Source: a virus
Taxonomy: Duplodnaviria; Caudoviricetes
Direction: 5' to 3' (one strand)
DNA: 55,260 bases
IMG/VR virus record: IMGVR_UViG_3300020220_002267
Coordinates: 1 to 55,260 of that record
Both the position numbers and the translations under genes were made by a program. A model generated the notes under the pieces. It was not told the DNA's origin. It worked only from the letters and a program-made list of their open reading frames with translations, and searched no databases. Positions 1,126 through 10,669 of the stretch are shown one piece after another (position 1 is the first letter of the stretch; the number at the start of each line of letters is the position of its first letter).

Positions 1126-3015
1126 ATGAACAACGATCTTCAGAAGCGTGTCGAGGCCCTGGGCCCGGCCGAGCGGCTCATCCAGACGCTGCTCACCCAC
1201 CAGGACCACATGATCCACAACCGTCCGGGCATCGTGGTCCCGGCCCCGGGCACCGTCACGGGTGTCAAGTGGGAGGCTGCGTCGTACAAGGAGGAGGGTC
1301 CGGAGGGCGGGGCGAAGGAGAAGATCGCCTACTTCAACCGGAAGGTCGGGACCAAGACCCAGAAGGTTCGGGCGGGCGTCATCGGTGCGGACGGGAAGGT
1401 CCGTGACGGTGGCCGCATCGTCGGCGAGTACCGTCAGCCGGGGTTCTACCCGGAGGTCGCCTCGTGGGTGTACCGCCAGATCGCCGAGGTCTACAAGCTC
1501 GACAACGAGTTCGTGGCCCGGTGGGCTTCCTACGCCTTCGGCCAGGAGCACAAGGATCTGAAGGTCGCCCTGGCCGCGTTCCTCCTCGTTCAGACCCGCC
1601 GGGGTGATCCGGTGGTCGAGGACGGGAAGGTGCTGTTCTACGACGAGGACTTCCGCGATGTCGGTGAGGCCATGTGCCTCATCCGCCGGAACGACGGAAA
1701 GGATCTGAACCCGCGCCTCCTGCTGCGGGTCGGTGACCTCCTGCGTCTCCCGGGGATCGCGGCCATCAACCGTGAGCTTGGGTTCGGCCGTTCGGCCAAG
1801 AACCCGGCCCTCGGCCGGTGGGAGAAGGCCGTCGAGAAGTACCTCCGTCACCGGGAGGAGAACCCGAAGATGCTCGAGGGCATGGTGAAGGCGGGCATGC
1901 GTACCACGGTCATGGCCCTGGCGCGTGCCGTCCACTACAAGCCGGAGACGACTCGGTTCTTCGAGATCCTTCGCTGGAAGCAGGCTCAGTCCCAGGATGG
2001 TCGGCGTTCGCTGGCCATCGGGACCGAGGTGCAGGCTGCGGAGTCGTGGGAGGGTCTGACCGAGGCCGAGGTGTGCCAGAAGATCGTCGAGACGAAGCCG
2101 TCGTACAAGCGCATCGTGGGTCTGCTCCCGAAGGGGATGGGCCTCACCCGTGCGATCGTGGCGGCGGCGGTCGAGTCCGGTGCGATGTCCGACCAGGATC
2201 TCATCATCGCGACCCCGACCCTCGAGGATCTGGGCCTCATCAACGTGGAGCCGGTGAAGTCCCGGTGGGAGAAGGCTCTCGCCAAGGCCGAGAACCAGCG
2301 TGCGGTGAACATCGCCGCCCGCGTGAAGAACGTGGAGACGAAGGAGAAGCTGGCTGTCGCCGCCGACACCGCCGTCAAGAAGGCGGTCGAGGAGGTGATG
2401 AAGGGCCTCACCATCTACTTCATGGTCGACATCTCGGGCTCGATGCAGAACGCCATCGAGCAGTCCAAGGACTACATCGCCAAGCTCCTCGGCGGGTTCC
2501 CGCTCGAGAAGGTCAAGGTCTCCGTGTTCAACACGTCGGGCCGTGAGGTGCAGATCAAGCACGCTTCCTCGAAGGGTGTCGAGGCCGCCTTCCGTGGCAT
2601 CACGGCGAGCGGTGGCACCGACTACGGTGCGGGTGTCCGTGCGCTCCAGGCGTTCAAGCCGGGGGCGGACGAGGATGCCCTGTTCATCTTCGTCGGTGAC
2701 GAGCAGGCGGGGGAGTTCTCCCACGCGGTTCGTGGCTCGGGTCTCAACCCGGTCGCCTTCGGTCTCCTGAAGGTGTCGGGCGGGGAGCACGACCGGGCTG
2801 TCCGTCAGACGGCGGCCTCGCTCGGGATCCCGTGCTTCAACATCGACAAGGGCATCTTCGAGGACGTGTACTCGCTCCCGCGCACGCTCCGCAACATGAT
2901 CGCGGCCACCCCGGTCGTGCAGGGTGTTGTGGCGGCTCGCGCGGTCCCGCGTGTCTCCCTCGTCGAGCAGATCCTCAAGACGGACCTGCTCAAGAAGCCC
3001 CATTTCGCGCTGTAG
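1126..3015 (+). CDS. VWA (MIDAS) domain protein with long helical N-terminal region, possibly TROVE/Ro60-like
   Basis: C-terminal VDISGSM, GGTDY, FVGDEQ MIDAS motifs; AAGGAG Shine-Dalgarno before ATG 1126. Confidence 0.8.
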   Translation: MNNDLQKRVEALGPAERLIQTLLTHQDHMIHNRPGIVVPAPGTVTGVKWEAASYKEEGPEGGAKEKIAYFNRKVGTKTQKVRAGVIGADGKVRDGGRIVGEYRQPGFYPEVASWVYRQIAEVYKLDNEFVARWASYAFGQEHKDLKVALAAFLLVQTRRGDPVVEDGKVLFYDEDFRDVGEAMCLIRRNDGKDLNPRLLLRVGDLLRLPGIAAINRELGFGRSAKNPALGRWEKAVEKYLRHREENPKMLEGMVKAGMRTTVMALARAVHYKPETTRFFEILRWKQAQSQDGRRSLAIGTEVQAAESWEGLTEAEVCQKIVETKPSYKRIVGLLPKGMGLTRAIVAAAVESGAMSDQDLIIATPTLEDLGLINVEPVKSRWEKALAKAENQRAVNIAARVKNVETKEKLAVAADTAVKKAVEEVMKGLTIYFMVDISGSMQNAIEQSKDYIAKLLGGFPLEKVKVSVFNTSGREVQIKHASSKGVEAAFRGITASGGTDYGAGVRALQAFKPGADEDALFIFVGDEQAGEFSHAVRGSGLNPVAFGLLKVSGGEHDRAVRQTAASLGIPCFNIDKGIFEDVYSLPRTLRNMIAATPVVQGVVAARAVPRVSLVEQILKTDLLKKPHFAL

Positions 3016-3031
3016 TGCGCGAAGGAGGTGG

Positions 3032-3058
3032 GTTCAGACCCACCCACCTCAACCGTAG
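3032..3058 (+). promoter_or_regulatory. Class-1 promoter motif GTTCAG-N16-CGTAG
   Basis: gttcag-acccacccacctcaac-cgtag, 18 nt before ATG 3076. Confidence 0.7.
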
Positions 3059-3075
3059 TCCTCACAGGAGTTCTG

Positions 3076-3324
3076 ATGCGTTTCGTCCCCCTCATGTTCC
3101 TCATGGCCTGCTCCGAAAACGAGATGGCCAAGTCCTTCGGCGGGACGATGCACCTCGACCTGCCCTGCGGTGAGAAGCTCACCGAGATCACCTGGAAGGA
3201 CACGGACCTCTGGTACGCCTACCGCCCCATGCGGGAGGGTGAGGTGCCGGAGACCACCACGTTCAAGGCCGACACGGCCATGGGCGTAATGGAAGGCACG
3301 GTCATCGTGCAGGAGTGCCGCTGA
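3076..3324 (+). CDS. Small putative lipoprotein
   Basis: AGGAG SD; short hydrophobic N-terminus with lipobox-like LMAC; stop overlaps next ATG. Confidence 0.6.
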   Translation: MRFVPLMFLMACSENEMAKSFGGTMHLDLPCGEKLTEITWKDTDLWYAYRPMREGEVPETTTFKADTAMGVMEGTVIVQECR

Positions 3325-4334
3325 TGGGCTGGCAGGATCTGATCGCAAAGCCGGATGAGTCCGTCACCGTCCCTTGGACCGGTGGGCGGGAGATCCGTGC
3401 TCAGCGTCGGGTCCTCCAGGTCGAGGGCCGTCTCCCCAAGGAGCACGGCTGGCACGAGTTCAACATCACCGGGGGTCGCAAGGCTTCCTGGAAGGGACTC
3501 GTTGAGCCCAACATCGACGAGGTGTTCGCCGGGGCCAAGTTCTCGAAGGGCTACCTCGTCGGCGACCGCTTCATCCCGGACGGGGTGGCGGCGGCTGTCG
3601 AGCCGACCAAGATCATCGAGCAGACGGAGCCGGTTCACCTGGTTGAGCTTGGCCTGGAGCGGTTCGCTCGGGTCAAGGTGGCCCGGTGGGAGGATGGTCG
3701 CCTCATCTACGTGGGCCAGGAGTTCCCTCTCGGTCCCGAGGGCGAGGTGACCAACGCCTACCAGGACCGGAAGCCGTCGGTCAGCGACATCACCAACGTC
3801 ACGCCCGCTCTCGACCTGGCTTTCAGGTTCGAGTCGTGGAACCGTTCCGAGGGAGAGCGCCTTCGGGCGGAGGCCGAGCGTCTCGCACGGGAGGAGGAGG
3901 CCAAGAAGGCTGCCGAGATCCGTCGGGCCGAACTGGCTCGTCAGCTTGGGACCGGGGATGGTCGTCGCGAGATGGCGAAGCTCGACTTCGGGGCAGCCGC
4001 CAAGGCGGCTCTGGCGGTCGGTGGTGCCGAGCTTCTCGACTGGCGGGATTCCCGGGTCGCGGGCGAGGCCGTCGTCCAGTTCCGGTACTCGGGTCGTCGG
4101 TTCGAGTGCGTCGCCCAGAAGGAGACGCTTCGCATCATCGACTCCGGCATCTGCCTCGTCGATCACGGCTCGGGCGAGCGGGGCGACACCCGGTTCACGC
4201 TCGAGTCTCTCCCTGGGGTCATCGGACAGGCCCAGAGGGAGCGTCGGCTGGTGGTGTTCCGCCACGTCGATGAGCGTGGCGGGTACGTCCGCAACGATGA
4301 TGGAGATTTCCAAGACGAAGACGAGGACTACTGA
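3324..4334 (+). CDS. Hypothetical protein of the Ubl locus; C-terminal domain is a candidate divergent E2-like enzyme
   Basis: Coiled-coil middle; C-terminal IIDSGICLVD...FTLESLPGVI resembles the E2 GxICL and downstream helix pattern; lies between VWA and JAB. Confidence 0.55.
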   Translation: MGWQDLIAKPDESVTVPWTGGREIRAQRRVLQVEGRLPKEHGWHEFNITGGRKASWKGLVEPNIDEVFAGAKFSKGYLVGDRFIPDGVAAAVEPTKIIEQTEPVHLVELGLERFARVKVARWEDGRLIYVGQEFPLGPEGEVTNAYQDRKPSVSDITNVTPALDLAFRFESWNRSEGERLRAEAERLAREEEAKKAAEIRRAELARQLGTGDGRREMAKLDFGAAAKAALAVGGAELLDWRDSRVAGEAVVQFRYSGRRFECVAQKETLRIIDSGICLVDHGSGERGDTRFTLESLPGVIGQAQRERRLVVFRHVDERGGYVRNDDGDFQDEDEDY

Positions 4335-4543
4335 TGGACTGGGATGCGGACAACCTCCACTGGGAAGAGATCGACCGGGTGGAATCCCACGACAACGGGC
4401 CCTACGTGGTCACCGAGCGCACTTCTGTGCCCGGCGGCTACCTCGTCCGCATCATCGGCTACACCTGGGACGGGCTCCCGTCTCTCGGGGTCAGCATCAC
4501 GTTCGTCCCAGACCTCCCGGCAAAGCAGGAAGGTGCAGCGTGA
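4334..4543 (+). CDS. Hypothetical protein (69 aa)
   Basis: TGATG coupling at both ends, typical codon usage. Confidence 0.6.
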   Translation: MDWDADNLHWEEIDRVESHDNGPYVVTERTSVPGGYLVRIIGYTWDGLPSLGVSITFVPDLPAKQEGAA

Positions 4544-4926
4544 TGGAAGTCGGGGTCGTCATCGCCAAGGATGGCTCGGTCATCCACTGGCACCTGCCGC
4601 CCAACCGGACGAGCGTGGCTCTCCCGGACAGCCGCGACCTGTGGGACATCCTCTGGGAGAACCGGGATCGGCTGGCGGGCTTTGCCCACTCCCATCCGGG
4701 CAGCGGCCTCCCGGGGCCGTCGTACACGGACGTGACCACCTTCGCGGGTGTGGAGGCGGGCCTCGGGCGTCGCCTCCGCTGGTGGATCACAAGCACGGAT
4801 CGGCTCATCGAGCTTCGGTGGGAGGGTCCACACCAACACGAATATGTCGGGTGGGAGGTTCAGTCGGACCCCGCCCAGCGTATGTGGGTCGAAGAACTAC
4901 GTCGTCAATCCTATGAGCAGAGGTGA
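4543..4926 (+). CDS. JAB/MPN+/JAMM metallopeptidase
   Basis: N-terminal Glu (MEVG) and FAHSHPGSGLPGPSYTD JAMM motif (HxH-x7-S-x2-D). Confidence 0.85.
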   Translation: MEVGVVIAKDGSVIHWHLPPNRTSVALPDSRDLWDILWENRDRLAGFAHSHPGSGLPGPSYTDVTTFAGVEAGLGRRLRWWITSTDRLIELRWEGPHQHEYVGWEVQSDPAQRMWVEELRRQSYEQR

Positions 4927-4929
4927 AAA

Positions 4930-5229
4930 ATGGAGAACATCGTCGAGGGAATCAACCTGCCGGTCCGCGCTCTGGCGGACTTCGAGGCTCGTCTCAACGT
5001 GACCTTCGCGGGTCAGAACGGCGACCTGCCGGACCCGGTGGCGTTCGACGCCCCGGACGCTGACGTGAAGCGGTGGGCCACCGAGGCCGTCCGCAACGGC
5101 GGCATCCCGGGCATCGGGGCCAACGCGGGGGCGTCCTTCGACGACTTCGTCGTCGATCGCTTCCCGCCGAACGAGCAGCGGCCGTTCCGCCTGATCCAGC
5201 TTCGTCCGAAGACTCCGTTCGGAGCCTGA
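4930..5229 (+). CDS. Ubiquitin-like (beta-grasp) modifier precursor ending RPKTPFG-A
   Basis: 99 aa, final strand LIQLRP then penultimate Gly; directly downstream of JAB and upstream of ThiF/E1. Confidence 0.65.
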   Translation: MENIVEGINLPVRALADFEARLNVTFAGQNGDLPDPVAFDAPDADVKRWATEAVRNGGIPGIGANAGASFDDFVVDRFPPNEQRPFRLIQLRPKTPFGA

Positions 5230-5549
5230 TGACGATGCGGTTCATCGTGGAACTGCACCAGGACGGGGGTTGCGACTACACCATTGGGTGCGGGACGAAA
5301 ATCGTCCCCCTCAAGGCTGTGGATCGCACCTCCGCCCTCCGCGAAGTCCAAGAGCTTCTGGCGGACCGGTACACCGGGGAGTACTCGGTGGCACGGGCCC
5401 ACATCTACGCCGTGGCCGAGGACTTCCCCGCCGATGTGGGGGCCATCTACAAGGCCATCGCCGCCGAACGCCAGGCCGAGCAGGACGAAGAGAAAGAGGA
5501 AGAGGAGCGGGCCGAGTACGAGCGGCTTCGCCAGAAGTTCGGCAAGTAG
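5229..5549 (+). CDS. Hypothetical phage protein with acidic C-terminal coiled coil
   Basis: TGATG coupling; GCDYTIGCG motif; ends EYERLRQKFGK. Confidence 0.65.
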   Translation: MTMRFIVELHQDGGCDYTIGCGTKIVPLKAVDRTSALREVQELLADRYTGEYSVARAHIYAVAEDFPADVGAIYKAIAAERQAEQDEEKEEEERAEYERLRQKFGK

Positions 5550-5576
5550 GTTCAGAACCTCCCCTCTGATGCGTAT
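5550..5576 (+). promoter_or_regulatory. Class-1 promoter motif GTTCAG-N16-CGTAT
   Basis: Intergenic, followed by GGAGG and ATG 5595. Confidence 0.7.
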
Positions 5577-5594
5577 GAGGGTTGGAGGTTCCTG

Positions 5595-5870
5595 ATGGCC
5601 GAGCGTTCTGTCCCCTCGGACGTTTCCGACTACATCCACTTCGGGGATGTGGCCCGGGACCGCTGCGGAATGCAGTGTCAGTACGCCCGGCACTACCTGG
5701 CGGGTGAGCACGGCTCCGCCGACCTCGGGTCAGACCTGCGGTGGTTCGGCGAGACCGCCGACTATCACAAGCTCCAAATCCACCGAGAGGACGCTGACGA
5801 GTTCGTCCGCCGGGTCCGCAAGCACCGGACCGAGGGCGGCATGGGCTGGTCGGGCGAGAAGGAGTCCTGA
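5595..5870 (+). CDS. Hypothetical protein
   Basis: GGAGG SD, promoter motif upstream, GC3-rich codons. Confidence 0.65.
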   Translation: MAERSVPSDVSDYIHFGDVARDRCGMQCQYARHYLAGEHGSADLGSDLRWFGETADYHKLQIHREDADEFVRRVRKHRTEGGMGWSGEKES

Positions 5871-6163
5871 TGGACACGCTCATCACCACCTACGGGGGAC
5901 ATCCCGCGTACCGGGAGCCTGGGTTCGAGGTCGTGGCGTTCCCGTCCAGCCTCGTGGCGTTCGCCATCGACGAGACGGGCAAGCACCTCCGCCGAGTCGG
6001 GGACACGAGCCAGCCGCCTCACTGGGGCATCTGGCAAGGGACCGTCCACGTCTCCGCGTACAGCCCGGACACCTCCATCTTCGACCTCATGGAACTCCTG
6101 CGGAGAGGGCAGACCGCCCTCCGTTGCAAGGAGAACCGGCCCAACCTCAACCCGAGAAGGTGA
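5870..6163 (+). CDS. Hypothetical protein
   Basis: AAGGAG SD, TGATG coupling. Confidence 0.6.
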   Translation: MDTLITTYGGHPAYREPGFEVVAFPSSLVAFAIDETGKHLRRVGDTSQPPHWGIWQGTVHVSAYSPDTSIFDLMELLRRGQTALRCKENRPNLNPRR

Positions 6164-6195
6164 AGAGGCTCAAGGTGATCGACTTCGACGTTTGA
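6160..6195 (+). pseudogene. Remnant of the original 5' end of the ThiF/E1 gene (MKRLKVIDFDV*)
   Basis: GTGA overlap with upstream stop; LKVIDFD matches FRIVDMD of the intact E1; ends where the endonuclease insert begins. Confidence 0.55.
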
Positions 6196-6220
6196 CGTAG
6201 AGAGGAACACACGGTAAGCT
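6192..6220 (+). promoter_or_regulatory. Sigma70-like promoter TTGACG-N17-TAAGCT, probably giving leaderless mRNA
   Basis: -10 ends 6 nt before ATG 6227; no SD in between. Confidence 0.65.
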
Positions 6221-6226
6221 GTGCTC

Positions 6227-7171
6227 ATGCGGAAACCGTTCACACAGTCCGAGATCGCAGAGGTCGTCGCGAGCTATCAGTCGGGGCAGAGTGTTCGACA
6301 GATTGCAATACGGTTGAGCCGCGCCCCGAGTGCTGTGCAAGCTCATCTTCAAGAACAAGGGTTGCTGCGAACCCGCGAGGAGTACCTCGCGGCACGGGCC
6401 AACCACATTGAAATCACGCCCGAACTTCGGTCCATCCTTGACGGGATGCTCCTCTCGGATGCCTCGATTTCTTGTGGGAAAGGTCGTAAGAGTGCTGGGG
6501 TCACGCTCTGGCAGAGTCCTGTTCGGCGTGGGTGGCTGGAACAACTACAAGAAGAGCTTCGCACCCAGGGTGTGCTGTCCACCCTCGACGAGCGAACAAT
6601 CCAGCCCTCACAATTCAAAGACGGGCGGATGTCCCCTGGCGGGGACTACCTCGTCCTCAGAACACGAAGCTACGTCGAGTTCGTAGCAGAGCGGGAACGG
6701 TGGCACCTAAACGGAGCCAAAGCCCCTCCCCTCGATCTGCGGCTCACCCCCACGTCCCTTCGGCACTGGTTTTGTGGGGACGGCACGGGAGGCGACCAGA
6801 AAGGTACGCTTGGCCTTTACACCAACGGCTTCACCGCAGCAGATGTTGACCGACTGGTAGCCCTCCTTCAGTCGGATCTCAACATCGAAGCCACCCGCCT
6901 CGTCGACCAGCGGGGGCACTCGAGGATTCTCATCGGGAAGCGCGACATGGCTGTCCGCGTGCAAGACCTCATCGGGGTTCAGGTTGTGCCCTGTTGTGCG
7001 TATAAGTTCCAGCACGTTCGGCCCCTTCCAGAAACAGGAAAGGGTCGCCGTCTCCTGGAGTCAACTCTCATCGCCGTGAAGCAAGATCGAGGCACCTGCA
7101 CGATGCGCGAAGCGGCGAAAAGACACGGTGTTTCCGTGTCAAAGGTGTGGAAGCTATGGCACGAATCGTAG
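6227..7171 (+). CDS. LAGLIDADG homing endonuclease with N- and C-terminal HTH
   Basis: ILDGMLLSDAS and HWFCGDG motifs, LYTNGFT; terminal HTH segments; more AT-rich codons than neighbours. Confidence 0.85.
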   Translation: MRKPFTQSEIAEVVASYQSGQSVRQIAIRLSRAPSAVQAHLQEQGLLRTREEYLAARANHIEITPELRSILDGMLLSDASISCGKGRKSAGVTLWQSPVRRGWLEQLQEELRTQGVLSTLDERTIQPSQFKDGRMSPGGDYLVLRTRSYVEFVAERERWHLNGAKAPPLDLRLTPTSLRHWFCGDGTGGDQKGTLGLYTNGFTAADVDRLVALLQSDLNIEATRLVDQRGHSRILIGKRDMAVRVQDLIGVQVVPCCAYKFQHVRPLPETGKGRRLLESTLIAVKQDRGTCTMREAAKRHGVSVSKVWKLWHES

Positions 7172-7728
7172 TGGTGGGAGTGGGGGCTTTGGGGAGCCAT
7201 TTCCTGCTCTTCGCTCGAAACATCCCCGCACAATTCCGTATCGTGGATATGGATAGGGTGGAACGTAAGAACGTCATGAGCCAGTTCCACACGAACATGG
7301 CCGTGGGAAAGAACAAGGCCGACGCGCTCAAGCAGGCGATGCAGGGTCTGTTCGGCATCAAGATCGACGCCGTTCCGCACCGGCTCACCACGGACAACGT
7401 GGAGCAGCTACTGGGTGGGGCCGACCTCGTGGTGGACTGCCTCGACAACGGGGCCAGCCGGAAGATCATCCAGAACTACGTGCGGGCCAAGGGCATCCCC
7501 TGTCTCCACGGGGCCCTGGCTCCCGACGGCGGGTTCGGGCGGGCGGTCTGGAGTTCGAACTTTGTGATTGACAACGAGAGTGGGGGTGTGGCAACCTGTG
7601 AGGATGGAGCCCACCTTCCCTTCATCACCATCGTCGCCTCTCATCTTGCCTTCGCCGTGCAGCGATTCCTCGCCACCGGAGAGCAAGTCAATTTCAACAT
7701 CTTCCCTGGCGGGGTCTCGCGCTTCTAG
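7156..7728 (+). CDS. ThiF/MoeB/E1-like adenylyltransferase
   Basis: IVVVGVGALGS, DMDRVERKNVMSQ, KNKA, VVDCLDN; candidate catalytic Cys in ATCED; no CxxC Zn motifs. Confidence 0.9.
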   Translation: MARIVVVGVGALGSHFLLFARNIPAQFRIVDMDRVERKNVMSQFHTNMAVGKNKADALKQAMQGLFGIKIDAVPHRLTTDNVEQLLGGADLVVDCLDNGASRKIIQNYVRAKGIPCLHGALAPDGGFGRAVWSSNFVIDNESGGVATCEDGAHLPFITIVASHLAFAVQRFLATGEQVNFNIFPGGVSRF

Positions 7729-8686
7729 CCGAGAGAAACGAGCAGATCGACGCACAGCACATCTCGATGTAGCGGCTCTCATCGAGGGATATCGTTCCGG
7801 ACTCAGTTCGGCGGAGTTGGCTTGTCGATTCGGGGTCGGTCGATCCACCGTCCTTTCCCGATTGCGAGAGGCGGGTGTGCATGTTCGCCGTCCTTCGGAG
7901 TGGGAGGAAAAGCCACTTGCTCTGTCACCGGAGCGACTGGAACGTCTCACCGAGATCGTGGATGGGTTGATGCTAGGAGATGGGCATCTTCGCCGCCTTG
8001 GCGGCTTGAGACTTGAGCAGAGTCATGTTCGACGCGGGTGGGTCGAAGACGTTCAGCGTCACCTTGCGGATTTGGGAGTGTTGAGCACCCTCGATGAAGT
8101 GATCCGATCTGCCCGTGTTCGTCCTGATGGCCGTGTGCTCCCCCCATACACGGGATGCACCCTTCGGGTGCCTGCCTACGTCGAGCTTAGGGAGTTGCGA
8201 CAGCGGTGGTATCCCAACGGGGTGAAGTGTGTTCCAGAAGATGTGCGACTAACAGCAGCATCAGTCGCGGACTGGGTAAGCGGAGATGGGACCGGCAACT
8301 CGGCTGGGGGTTTGATCCTCTGCACGGATGGCTTCACGGAACAGGATGTTCGACATCTCATCTGCCGTCTCCGGGAGACATTCGGCGTGCGGGCTCGCAC
8401 AGTCTTCTCTGGCGGGGGGAGACCGAAGATCGGGATCCTTCGGAAAGATGATGTCCTCCATCTACGAGACATTTTGCTTCCCCACATGTCGGCGTGCTGC
8501 CACTACAAGTTTCGACACGCACGGGCTGCACAGAAACGAGGAACACTATCGGAGTTCGAAGTTCGAGACATCCGAGCGAGGTACGAAGCGGGGGTGGTGC
8601 TCGCCGTGCTCGCAAATGAATATGGGCTAAGCCGTGCAGCCATCAACAACATCGGGATGCGAAAAGTCTACAAATGGGTGCCCTGA
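7604..8686 (+). CDS. Second LAGLIDADG homing endonuclease with HTH domains (start uncertain, overlaps E1 3' end)
   Basis: IVDGLMLGDGHL, DWVSGDG, LCTDGFT, WYPNGVKCVP; similar to 6227..7171. Confidence 0.8.
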   Translation: MEPTFPSSPSSPLILPSPCSDSSPPESKSISTSSLAGSRASSREKRADRRTAHLDVAALIEGYRSGLSSAELACRFGVGRSTVLSRLREAGVHVRRPSEWEEKPLALSPERLERLTEIVDGLMLGDGHLRRLGGLRLEQSHVRRGWVEDVQRHLADLGVLSTLDEVIRSARVRPDGRVLPPYTGCTLRVPAYVELRELRQRWYPNGVKCVPEDVRLTAASVADWVSGDGTGNSAGGLILCTDGFTEQDVRHLICRLRETFGVRARTVFSGGGRPKIGILRKDDVLHLRDILLPHMSACCHYKFRHARAAQKRGTLSEFEVRDIRARYEAGVVLAVLANEYGLSRAAINNIGMRKVYKWVP

Positions 8687-8850
8687 TCGACGACGAGACG
8701 GGGATGGGTGCCGCCACCTGCGAGGATGGAGAACACCTGCCGTTCATCACCACCGTCTCGAGCTACATGGCTGCCTCGATTCAGCGGTTTCTGAAAGACG
8801 GCCGAAAGGTCGGCTTCCAGGTGCATCCCGGCGGAGTGATGGTCATCTGA
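8686..8850 (+). pseudogene. Displaced original 3' end of ThiF/E1 gene
   Basis: Translates IDDETGMGAATCEDGEHLPFITTVSSYMAASIQRFLKDGRKVGFQVHPGGVMVI*, colinear with the E1 C-terminus at 7567..7728. Confidence 0.85.
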
Positions 8851-8924
8851 GTTGAGGTGGGGGGTTGCCGCCTTCCACCAGTCGGGTAGTAGTGGATGTC
8901 AGAAGCGTTCTTCGACAACTCAAC

Positions 8925-9068
8925 GGCAGGGCCGCCCCGGAGTGGGGCAACCGGTACATAACCGGTCGCAACAGCGACCCGGCTCATCACACTCGCTCCT
9001 TCCTAACCCGAGGGAGCACAACGATGATCCTACAAGCCCGCCAGGTGCAACTCCTGGACCTGCCACCA
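8925..9068 (+). ncRNA. tRNA-like RNA, anticodon CAU, with a 74-nt structured insert in the variable loop and encoded ACCA
   Basis: Acceptor ggcagg/cctgcc+ACCA; D arm gcccc/ggggc; anticodon arm accgg-tacataa-ccggt; T arm ccagg-tgcaact-cctgg. Confidence 0.7.
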
Positions 9069-9209
9069 TTGACCGTCCACTTTGGCAAGCGCACAAGCAG
9101 GTTGGTTCAACTCCAACATTTTCCTCCAAAACTGGAAAATATGCTCCGTGGTGGAGCAATCGATTCATACTCGATCAAAAACAACACGCTTGCCTACTCG
9201 GATGGTCAA
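9069..9209 (+). ncRNA. Circularly permuted tRNA(CAU)-like RNA (3' half first), possibly Y-RNA-like
   Basis: Order: T arm 9101-9117, acceptor 3' strand+UCCA 9118-9128, spacer, acceptor 5' strand 9134-9140, D arm, anticodon arm atcga-ttcatac-tcgat; closed by 8-bp and 10-bp stems. Confidence 0.75.
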
Positions 9210-9245
9210 ACCCTTTCCTCGCCCACAACGGTAAGCCCACAAGCA

Positions 9246-9318
9246 GCGTGAGTAGCTCATCAGGTAGAGCGTCGGGCCAACAACCCGAAGGTAGCTGGTT
9301 CGAGTCCAGCCTTATGCC
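9246..9318 (+). tRNA. Atypical tRNA: initiator-Met-like body with anticodon loop CCAACAA (AAC); possibly a pseudo-tRNA
   Basis: Full cloverleaf: gcgtgag/cttatgc, tagctca..ggtagagc, tcggg/cccga, gctgg-ttcgagt-ccagc; C at position 33; no CCA. Confidence 0.7.
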
Positions 9319-9350
9319 CCGAAAACTTCCCAGGCTTTCCAACTCGGACG

Positions 9351-9468
9351 AGGACCCCTTTCCCTGCCCACTACGAAGTGCCCACACGCCGCCGGGTAGT
9401 CCGGCACCACTCTGCTAAAGTGAATTCTGTGGGTGCGAATCCCACCGTCCCTCTCGCAAGAGGGGGTC
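9351..9468 (+). ncRNA. tRNA-like element (GCU anticodon loop) with non-canonical acceptor region
   Basis: D-like gccgg/ccggc, cact-ctgctaa-agtg, T arm gtggg-tgcgaat-cccac; outer stem ggacccctt/agggggtcc. Confidence 0.45.
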
Positions 9469-9504
9469 CGGCACTTCAACTCGGACAGGGAAGCCCTTCG
9501 CGTC

Positions 9505-9546
9505 GAGCCCTCCCCCTTCCTCAAGGGGCGAGGGCTCCGCCTTTTT
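9505..9546 (+). terminator. Terminator of the tRNA-like RNA cluster
   Basis: gagccctc-cccctt/aagggg-c-gagggctc hairpin, then cgccttttt. Confidence 0.7.
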
Positions 9547-9581
9547 GGGCCTCGGTGATGTTCGCATAGCCACGGCGGGAC

Positions 9582-9980
9582 ATGGAGGTCCGCACCGTGG
9601 CCGAACGTCGGATCGACATCTACATCAACGAAGAAGGCTGGATTGTTGATGTGCTCGGCTTCCCCGAGGACACCGCTGGTTGGTTCGAGCATCTGGAACT
9701 ACTCGCACACGCCCTGGAGGTGGGAGTCACCCCGCACCCCGAGGCGACCAGCGGGGACGTGCAGCAATTCCGATCCCCGGCAGGGACACTGACCTACACC
9801 GAACGCATCACGGTCGTGGTGGACATCGACGGCACCTACGTGTGGTCCAGCCACAACCAGTATGCCACCCGCGCCCTCCTTCAAGACGTGCTCAACCTCG
9901 CTTCGGGGGGCATGGAGGGGTTCGCGATCTTCGATGGTTCGGGTACGGGTCTTCACCACATCCCCATCGGTGAAGCGTGA
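9582..9980 (+). CDS. Hypothetical protein
   Basis: 132-aa ORF, GC3 bias, GTGA overlap with next gene. Confidence 0.6.
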   Translation: MEVRTVAERRIDIYINEEGWIVDVLGFPEDTAGWFEHLELLAHALEVGVTPHPEATSGDVQQFRSPAGTLTYTERITVVVDIDGTYVWSSHNQYATRALLQDVLNLASGGMEGFAIFDGSGTGLHHIPIGEA

Positions 9981-10669
9981 AGCCCAAGCACATCGAAGCC
10001 CGAATCAAGCAGTGCATCGCCATCGCGGAGTGCTCCCCCTGCCCTCGGCGGAAGTTCGGAGCCTTGCTCCTGGAGCCGGTCCGCAACGTCCTCCTGATGG
10101 ACGGCTACAACGGCGGCCCTCGAGGCGGGGGTGGCATCTGTGGGGGAGACCGGTGCCTCCGAGATGGCCTCAAGCCCGAGGACGTCGAGATTCGGGGACC
10201 GAACGGTGTGGACGACCCCGACCCCGAGGACGCCTGGATCTACGTGAAGGGGAAGCAGGTGTCCCTCCCCATCGTCATCGACGGCGTCGAGCACTACAAG
10301 TCGCACGGATGGCGGGACGAGTGCCTGGAGTACCGCGAGAAGCTCCTGGCGGAGAACCCGCCCGTTCCCTCGGGCACCCGGTACGAGATCGGGTGTCACC
10401 ACGCCGAGATGAACGTCGTCACCAACGCCGCTGCCCAGGGTGTCGCTACGGCGGGGGCCTGGCTCATCGTCACCGGGGAGCCGTGCATCCTCTGTGCGAA
10501 GCTCATCCACCACGCGGGCATCTCGAAGGTCATCTGCGTGAAGGGCGGCTTCATGGGTGGAGACGAAGGCCCGAAGTACCTGCGGAAGCACCAGGTCGAG
10601 GTCGAGTACGTCGAGGGTCCGCCGGACCCCAGGCTCGTCCCGGTTCAGGCAAACACCTCGACAACGTAG
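9977..10669 (+). CDS. dCMP deaminase family protein with internal insertion
   Basis: SPCPRRKFGA, GYNG, HAEMN and PCILC Zn motifs. Confidence 0.9.
   Translation: MKPKHIEARIKQCIAIAECSPCPRRKFGALLLEPVRNVLLMDGYNGGPRGGGGICGGDRCLRDGLKPEDVEIRGPNGVDDPDPEDAWIYVKGKQVSLPIVIDGVEHYKSHGWRDECLEYREKLLAENPPVPSGTRYEIGCHHAEMNVVTNAAAQGVATAGAWLIVTGEPCILCAKLIHHAGISKVICVKGGFMGGDEGPKYLRKHQVEVEYVEGPPDPRLVPVQANTSTT
10643..10669 (+). promoter_or_regulatory. Class-1 promoter motif GTTCAG-N16-CGTAG
   Basis: In the 3' end of the deaminase gene, 22 nt before ATG 10691. Confidence 0.65.

Follow-up and report, generated by a model that had tools for sequence, protein, structure and literature searches.

Two LAGLIDADG endonuclease genes flank a three-part phage E1 gene and lie next to putative remnants of its native ends

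The window analyzed here is a 55-kb fragment (55,260 nucleotides) of the IMG/VR virus record IMGVR_UViG_3300020220_002267 (Caudoviricetes). It contains an E1/ThiF gene (E1) that is flanked on both sides by free-standing LAGLIDADG homing endonuclease genes, here called HEG1 and HEG2. E1 is a three-part chimera with a native core and two foreign ends, and a short partial copy of E1 that appears to be the displaced native end lies beyond the outer end of each endonuclease gene. We consider it likely that two endonuclease-driven, one-sided gene conversions each imported the adjacent E1 end of a donor and stranded the native end of the recipient. As the CheckV completeness of the 55-kb window is only 11%, the source is taken to be a very large (jumbo) phage. 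The features that make up the locus are the following.

6160-6195, + strand: mini-open reading frame (mini-ORF) MKRLKVIDFDV
6163..6189, + strand: putative native E1 5' remnant KRLKVIDFD, corresponding to E1 residues 25-33; 9 codons, inside the mini-ORF
6221..7171, + strand: HEG1, LAGLIDADG_2 endonuclease gene; gene-caller start 6227
7156-7728, + strand: E1/ThiF gene, 190 codons, three-part; ends with TAG at 7726-7728
7156..7266, + strand: E1 codons 1-37, foreign 5' end ("A type", ..FARNIPAQFRIVDMDRVE); G+C content at third codon positions (GC3) ~0.61
7267..7551, + strand: E1 codons 38-132, native core; GC3 ~0.92
7552..7728, + strand: E1 codons 133-190 and TAG, foreign 3' end ("X type", ..NFNIFPGGVSRF); GC3 ~0.69
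7730..8686, + strand: HEG2, LAGLIDADG_2 endonuclease gene; +1 frame relative to E1
8683..8850, + strand: putative native E1 3' remnant ("Y type", LIDDETGMGAATCEDGEHLPF...GGVMVI-stop), corresponding to residues 137-190; still open, GC3 0.79

The mosaic structure of E1 is apparent from its GC3, which is 0.605 in codons 1-38, 0.918 in codons 39-135 and 0.691 in codons 136-190 (Fisher tests on the segment contrasts, p 4.8e-5 and 5e-4). Elsewhere, GC3 is 0.80-0.89 in the neighboring genes and 0.66 and 0.57 in the endonuclease genes. Maximum-likelihood GC3 breakpoints fall after codons 37 and 132 (positions 7266 and 7551), in agreement with the first-pass annotation, which had described E1 as AT-richer at both ends with limits at about 7270 and 7550. 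These breakpoints coincide with the end of the upstream remnant (codon 33) and the start of the downstream remnant (codon 137).

A search of protein collections for E1 relatives found 1,754 at ~190 residues. The four closest relatives were compared with the window E1 in segments (N end, residues 1-38; middle, 39-135; C end, 137-190), and the C-terminal remnant was compared with each relative's own C end. Identities were as follows.

P0002: N end 21/38; middle 93/97; C end 51/54; remnant 31/55
P0003: N end 32/38; middle 90/97; C end 31/54; remnant 49/55
P0004: N end 21/38; middle 86/97; C end 32/54; remnant 51/55
P0142: N end 21/38; middle 90/97; C end 32/54; remnant 50/55

Together with the window E1, these relatives display all four combinations of N-type and C-type ends around one common core. 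After P0002, the sequences nearest to the in-gene C end are P0026, P0056 and P0037 (70-72%), which in their middles reach only 57-66% identity. The replacement ends had initially been described as recoded copies. On sequence grounds they instead appear to be the ends of divergent foreign alleles, as the C end and the N end match P0142 at just 32/54 and 21/38 positions, respectively. Likewise, an insertion just before the catalytic Cys had been proposed. The C junction is indeed upstream of the candidate residue Cys148, but the sequence comparison places it at codons 132-137, ~11 codons away.

The downstream remnant was recovered by a tblastn search of E1 against the record as a second match at 8680-8838, with 60% identity to residues 136-187 (E 2.3e-16), and scores 108 bits against a hidden Markov model (HMM) of the E1 C end. 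The copy of the E1 C-terminus noticed by the first-pass annotation is thus real. Its description as start-less was inexact, as an ATG at 8674, in frame and within the last codons of HEG2, opens a 58-codon ORF that is called by gene callers (P0141). This ORF and full-length P0142 share one 90% cluster. DNA homology of the remnant to E1 begins at 8683 with cTGAtcgac, the TGA of which serves as the stop codon of HEG2 and falls within the first two remnant codons (cTGAtc). In a 55-column tree, the approximately unbiased (AU) test rejected a sister relationship of the remnant with the in-gene C end (delta log-likelihood 50.2, p 0.008) and did not reject a grouping of the remnant with P0003, P0004 and P0142 (p 0.73). 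Overall, these comparisons indicate that the C-terminal remnant is the displaced native end of E1.

A 9-mer, ATGGGTGCC, occurs only twice in the window, at 8674-8682 and 8704-8712, 30 bases apart. One copy is located at the HEG2 end and the other inside the remnant (G-M-G-A), and the first 21 bases of the remnant lie between the two. A simple microhomology join through this 9-mer (8674/8704) at the right junction was rejected, since the 21 bases between the copies are retained.

For the upstream fragment, KRLKVIDFDV was scored at every E1 position. Residues 25-34 were best at 21.2 bits, the next-best position reached -3.0 bits, and the N-terminus, which the mini-ORF had first been thought to match, scored only -16.6 to -31.5. 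The mini-ORF therefore does contain a genuine E1 fragment, albeit not the N-terminal strand. Against a profile of 61 relatives, RLKVIDFDV ranked second (24.8 bits) of the 94,889 stop-free 9-mers in the six window frames, behind E1's own motif (25.9 bits) and ahead of a third-ranked 9-mer at 17.4. Furthermore, KVIDFD is 6/6 identical to P0142 and P0002, where the window E1 reads RIVDMD. In the E1 model described below, strand beta-2 spans residues 26-30, and the invariant D31-x-D33 comes next; the fragment stops after DFD, then continues as V-stop. Judged by its sequence, the N fragment corresponds to strand beta-2 and the DxD motif (residues 25-33) of the native E1. The mini-ORF begins with a GTG that shares bases with the stop of the preceding gene, an overlap also seen for E1 starts in relatives. 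Because of this resemblance, one may speculate that the fragment is the old E1 start, fused to codons 25-33 by an internal deletion.

The chimeric E1 gene is complete (7156-7728), colinear with its 190-amino-acid relatives, and retains 56/56 family-invariant residues. Its product matches the ThiF profile at 91.7 bits (cut-off 28.1), and the AlphaFold (AF2) model is an E1-like domain over its whole length (predicted local distance difference test score 92.5). Foldseek template-modeling scores of the model against MoeB, ThiF, UBA5, Cap2 and UBE1L are 0.76-0.83, while sequence matches to solved E1s end at residue 123. In the predicted structure, the X-type 3' end forms the loop with the invariant Cys148, a helix (154-174) and a beta-hairpin. 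Cys148 is invariant in 19/19 sequences and lies in a low-confidence loop (141-150); Cys95 and Cys116 are invariant too.

P0142, a full-length native-type E1, was missed by the length-filtered homologue search, because the representative of its 90% cluster is the remnant ORF, whose 58 residues put it outside the range of lengths covered. Length-filtered searches are thus subject to the caveat that a cluster represented by a short ORF can hide full-length relatives. Many E1 relatives are on contigs binned as Myxococcota metagenome-assembled genomes (L052-L076), and one is on a 799-kb scaffold of the isolate Paraliomyxa miuraensis. These relatives hint at the host, at prophages or at mis-binning.

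Both flanking genes encode recognizable endonucleases, with LAGLIDADG_2 profile scores of 57.2 bits (HEG1) and 70.9 bits (HEG2; cut-off 25) and matches to the PADLOC "HEase" model at 6e-14 and 3.5e-13. HEG1 has two LAGLIDADG motifs with acidic residues (LDGMLLSDAS and WFCGDGTG), and HEG2 has VDGLMLGDG and WVSGDGTG, in which D84 and D186 are invariant in 10 homologues. The two products are 35% identical and both have helix-turn-helix (HTH) regions, those of HEG1 at both ends. The last 16 bases of HEG1 overlap the first E1 codons in another frame. P0132 is 54% identical to HEG1 overall, yet 27/28 of its last residues are the same (..DRGTCTMREAAxRHGVSVSKVWKLWHES; window 7085-7171). This pattern of sequence identity in P0132 suggests that the HEG1 3' end and the overlapping E1 start travel as one block.

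The reading frame of HEG2 stays open as far upstream as 7568 and so overlaps the 3' end of E1. However, HEG2 has no ATG, GTG or TTG at the position where its homologues start (M-R/C-R-G-x-RRTAHLD), which is GAG in the window and GTG in L090, a 146,769-base IMG/VR contig. HEG2 is called by gene callers from an internal GTG at 7876 as a 269-amino-acid product without the N-terminal HTH, and the same holds for P0121, a homologue with 86% identity to HEG2. The loss of the start could reflect decay, use of a non-canonical start or coupling to E1. A tblastn search of HEG2 against phage records gave no match.

Homologues of HEG2 occur together with X-type E1 genes. P0121 and P0002 are each on a Logan contig of 10,273 bases, P0123 (62% identical to HEG2) pairs with P0026 at 15,326 bases, and P0126 (61%) pairs with P0027 at 123,704 bases; the C ends of P0026 and P0027 are both of the X type. 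On L090, an X-type E1 (4421-4990) is followed by a gene at 5001-5975 whose product is identical to P0123, and no remnant is present. A second LAGLIDADG gene lies upstream at 2991-3953, so that E1 is flanked on both sides on this contig as well, and E1 appears to be a place where genes of this endonuclease family settle repeatedly. At the DNA level, the window resembles L090 across the E1 end, the TAG stop and the endonuclease gene; this similarity breaks off right behind TGGGTG(C/G)C at 8682, a single base short of the remnant. These sequence comparisons indicate that HEG2 is linked to the X-type C end.

We examined 46 related loci (45 IMG/VR E1 loci and the Rctr197k locus L003), five of which have a LAGLIDADG gene directly upstream of E1. 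The upstream gene of L019 shares 54.5% identity with HEG1 and, like HEG1 in the window, terminates within the first E1 codons. Loci with an upstream endonuclease gene have a slightly higher N-end identity (one-sided Mann-Whitney p 0.028), which is a weak trend. No such LAGLIDADG gene was found in 38 GTDB loci, and one weak partial match was found in L051, a JGI contig that was the one relative (54%) among the matches listed in a scan of JGI metagenomes. HMM and tblastn searches of the 45 IMG/VR loci, L003, the 38 GTDB loci, L051 and L090 revealed no other partial E1 copy, and none of the scanned loci carries duplicated segments without endonucleases, a situation that would have spoken against the involvement of the endonucleases. 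A megablast search of window positions 4500-9500 against phage records gave no match, and a single-protein IMG/VR scan did not find the closest relatives (P0002, P0003, P0004 and P0142). Four low-share lake-water runs (X11, X13, X16 and X18) yielded only short contigs identical to the window and no endonuclease-free joints, which is uninformative either way.

From these data we infer the following sequence of events. The native E1 of this jumbo-phage lineage would have been of the P0142/P0004 type (N end ..IKVIDFDRIE; C end ..DETGMGAATCEDGEHLPF..GFQVHPGGV) and would have been struck twice by free-standing LAGLIDADG endonucleases resident beside E1 in other phages of the family. The usual seat of HEG2 would be just 3' of an E1 with an "NFNIFPGG"-type C end, and that of HEG1-type genes just 5' of E1, overlapping its start. 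HEG1 may have cut an endonuclease-free E1 near codons 33-37 (DxD-RVE, after beta-2), and HEG2 near codons 132-137 (after strand 128-132, at the start of the Cys148 loop). Repair would then have been templated on the donor. On the inner side it would have proceeded via homology in the E1 core, such that the donor E1 end was co-converted with the endonuclease gene, while on the outer side, where usable homology would have been missing, an illegitimate join would have been made. Because of this illegitimate outer join, the native end of the recipient would be stranded beyond the endonuclease gene. The product would be an intact hybrid E1, presumably immune to cleavage, that needs no splicing. One-sided repair predicts that remnants are placed at the outer ends and near the breakpoints. 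Indeed, both remnants directly adjoin the outer end of their endonuclease gene, and each begins or ends no more than ~5 codons from a GC3 breakpoint. The central proposal of the first-pass annotation, that two endonuclease genes each brought a replacement E1 end and displaced the native ends without splicing, is therefore supported by comparative evidence, namely the GC3 mosaic, the four combinations of end types, the native-type remnants, the HEG2/X-type link and the lack of an Rfam intron (see below).

Several observations weigh against two one-sided conversions. The AU test did not reject a clade of both C ends with P0002, P0003, P0004 and P0142 (p 0.09), and the groups for this test were defined after the identities had been seen. 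The co-location of P0121 with P0002, P0123 with P0026 and P0126 with P0027 was deduced from the equal sizes and the sources of the contigs. Six other endonuclease-bearing loci have no remnants, so stranded ends are no regular product of such invasions. Among the matches listed, no homologue of HEG1 or HEG2 is on a contig of the size of that of P0142 (140,300 bases), and the absence of an endonuclease gene beside P0142 is deduced from this non-appearance. No HEG1 homologue above 57% identity was among the matches listed either; because the best homologue is this distant, the link between HEG1 and the A-type end rests on the window and the weak trend mentioned above. HEG2, without the start codon of its homologues, may be inactive now. 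The N fragment is just 9 codons long and was not listed by an HMM search at E<=20, and the case for it therefore depends on the scoring at every E1 position and on its placement 26 bases before HEG1. Furthermore, native codons 1-24 are absent, a loss that resection from the break does not account for and that needs a further deletion.

Ordinary homologous recombination between co-infecting phages could also have made the mosaic, with the endonuclease genes as passengers at the exchange boundaries. Phage genomes are mosaic and nuclease genes are known at such boundaries (PMC10448857), and the missing start codon of HEG2 fits a passenger. We nevertheless regard this explanation as unlikely, since a clean homologous exchange leaves no stranded ends, whereas here there are remnants at both outer junctions, each of which starts or stops <=5 codons from a GC3 breakpoint and abuts an endonuclease gene. 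Moreover, X-type C ends and HEG2 homologues are found together in four independent contexts. In-place duplication of the E1 ends, with divergence of the copies and later landing of endonuclease genes between them, would explain the shared orientation and the 60% identity of the two C-end copies. It is considerably less probable still, because a sister relationship of the copies is rejected by the AU test (p 0.008) and the remnant matches the C ends of P0142 and P0004 at 50-51/55 positions, compared with 32/54 for the in-gene end. In-gene ends with foreign GC3, and an in-gene C end nearest to alleles whose middles are far more distant (see above), likewise argue against copies that arose in place.

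LAGLIDADG genes are often found in group I introns and inteins (PMC3943268), and E1 might accordingly be regarded as split, its distal segments being connected through an intron, an intein or trans-splicing and the endonuclease genes representing the intron or intein ORFs. However, the E1 gene is whole, colinear with its relatives and predicted to adopt a full E1-like fold, which makes splicing unnecessary. An Rfam scan of positions 5000-10000 found no intron family at E<=1, and the endonuclease genes are out of frame with E1, are separated from it by stops and contain just LAGLIDADG and HTH domains and no Hint domain. We give this explanation very little credence. The window is derived from metagenome assembly, and Y-type and X-type alleles could coexist in one sample and be joined into a chimera of two strains. 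This, too, is highly improbable, as runs X1-X5 contain all sampled 31-mers of positions 5600-9200 (X6-X8, 0.96, 0.92 and 0.83), and separate per-run contigs bridge 6100-6328, 7074-7236 and 7698-8000 without any difference. The same E1, HEG1 and remnant proteins were also recovered on 7, 7 and 8 contigs, respectively. No RNA run was among the listed runs. In this check, the runs may come from one campaign, and the 8683 junction is bridged by no listed piece.

Two one-sided conversions would have a further consequence. Each remnant now provides outer homology to native alleles, and the foreign end together with its endonuclease gene could home as a cassette. It is possible, although we hold this only tentatively and think it somewhat doubtful, that HEG1 with the 5' end and the 3' end with HEG2 are self-contained, splicing-free cassettes that home into the E1 of co-infecting jumbo phages. 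If so, each homing event would swap a functional module, either the nucleotide-binding start or the Cys-loop end, and the locus would be a phage counterpart of the fungal mobile ORFs (mORFs) discussed below, including the first 5'-end form, with the E1 of the ubiquitin-like system as a recurrent homing hot spot in this phage family. On the reading favored here, the locus would keep both the product and the leftovers of a homing-endonuclease invasion, a state that is seldom caught. A free-standing endonuclease gene that carries along a replacement gene end, 5' or 3', could thus enter a phage coding gene with no intron or intein, and such elements would shuffle modules of a conserved enzyme among jumbo phages. 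Two target sites are predicted, at E1 codons ~33-37 and ~132-137, and with a donor (L090), recipients (P0142 and P0004) and intermediates (P0002 and P0003) available as natural alleles, the mechanism is open to in vitro tests.

The surroundings of the locus contain the following further features.

from 4549, + strand: JAB-like gene (Pfam 22.1 bits, under the cut-off of 25)
4930-5229, + strand: small gene ending ..RPKTPFGA
between the ..RPKTPFGA gene and the mini-ORF, + strand: three small ORFs
5870..6163, + strand: upstream neighbor ORF, 97 codons, GC3 0.89; its TGA stop overlaps the mini-ORF GTG (GTGA)
9246..9320, + strand: tRNA-Val, marking a tRNA region that is also 3' of E1 in relatives

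The JAB-like gene, the ..RPKTPFG(A) gene and a 190-residue E1 form a conserved module that is present in the window and in L003, L009, L024, L031 and L034. The ..RPKTPFG(A) product, which has a C-terminal extension in Rctr197k, is a possible ubiquitin-like substrate with a C-terminal Gly. In four of the five loci that carry an endonuclease gene upstream of E1 (L009, L024, L031 and L034), this gene is located directly between the ..PKTPFG gene and E1. The upstream neighbor ORF (5870..6163) had no homologue at any related locus retrieved. A tRNA-like stretch at 9391-9445 (25.1 bits, under the Rfam cut-off of 29, and not called by ARAGORN) may be a decayed tRNA in the tRNA region 3' of E1. A promoter and terminator scan of 5800-9300 gave chance-level results only, and an all-against-all comparison of the window ORFs found no further partial duplicates beside mobile genes.

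The closest parallels to this locus are the mORF gene hybrids of fungal mitochondria, which have been described for atp6 of Allomyces macrogynus, atp6, atp9, cox2 and nad3 of Glomus sp., atp9 of Rhizopus and cox2 of Mortierella (PMC3630166). In mORFs, a LAGLIDADG or GIY-YIG endonuclease ORF brings a foreign C-terminal segment, and the native C-terminus is found duplicated downstream (PMC3630166). As in the window, the native copy is nearer to a close relative's gene than the inserted copy is, and no splicing is required (PMC3630166). The C-end half of the window locus corresponds to these hybrids feature for feature except for the reading phase (PMC3630166): gene-end duplicates lie beyond the endonuclease ORFs and the stranded copies are nearer to relatives, whereas some of the fungal endonuclease ORFs are in phase, and the window E1 keeps its own stop, with HEG2 in another frame. 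The window also differs in being from a phage, in the replacement of the 5' end with an N remnant upstream, and in the occurrence of two events in one 570-bp gene; the cases in the passages of PMC3630166 that we drew on are C-terminal only. A limited literature search found no phage in which an endonuclease gene is accompanied by a stranded gene end, and neither a 5'-end counterpart of a mORF-type hybrid nor two such events in one gene.

Intronless homing of the T4 type (Seg and Mob; PMC2988022, PMC2790892, PMC2330249) is the second parallel, with a free-standing endonuclease gene beside a conserved gene, as here. In phages that lack the endonuclease gene, free-standing phage endonucleases cut the neighboring gene, and the endonuclease gene is then copied in along with flanking markers; such co-conversion, as well as one-sided homing with illegitimate repair, is established for T4 (PMC2988022). 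The cutting of a neighboring gene and the co-conversion of its flanks resemble what is proposed for the window, and L090, L019 and four other loci show the plain intronless-homing arrangement. However, the T4 Seg and Mob enzymes are GIY-YIG or HNH endonucleases and those of the window are LAGLIDADG enzymes, and clean homing leaves no stranded gene ends. In one-sided T4 homing, homology on one side is combined with little or none at the other junction (PMC2988022), which is the step proposed for both outer junctions of the window. That precedent is an engineered intron system, whereas the window would be a natural, free-standing case deduced from sequence.

Endonuclease genes in or against an essential conserved gene are also known from Aeh1 nrdA/mobE and T4 gene 60/mobA (PMC2988022) and from fractured genes with split inteins (PMC2677866). 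In these fractured-gene systems the host gene is divided so that it yields two polypeptides, which reassemble, whereas the window E1 stays whole because its replacement end arrives with the invader. Endonucleases borne by introns or inteins are a poorer match, as neither a ribozyme family nor an in-frame Hint domain was found in the window. Overall, the locus appears by analogy to resemble both the fungal mORF hybrids and phage intronless homing, and what it would add to them is the occurrence in a phage, at the 5' end too, and twice in one gene.

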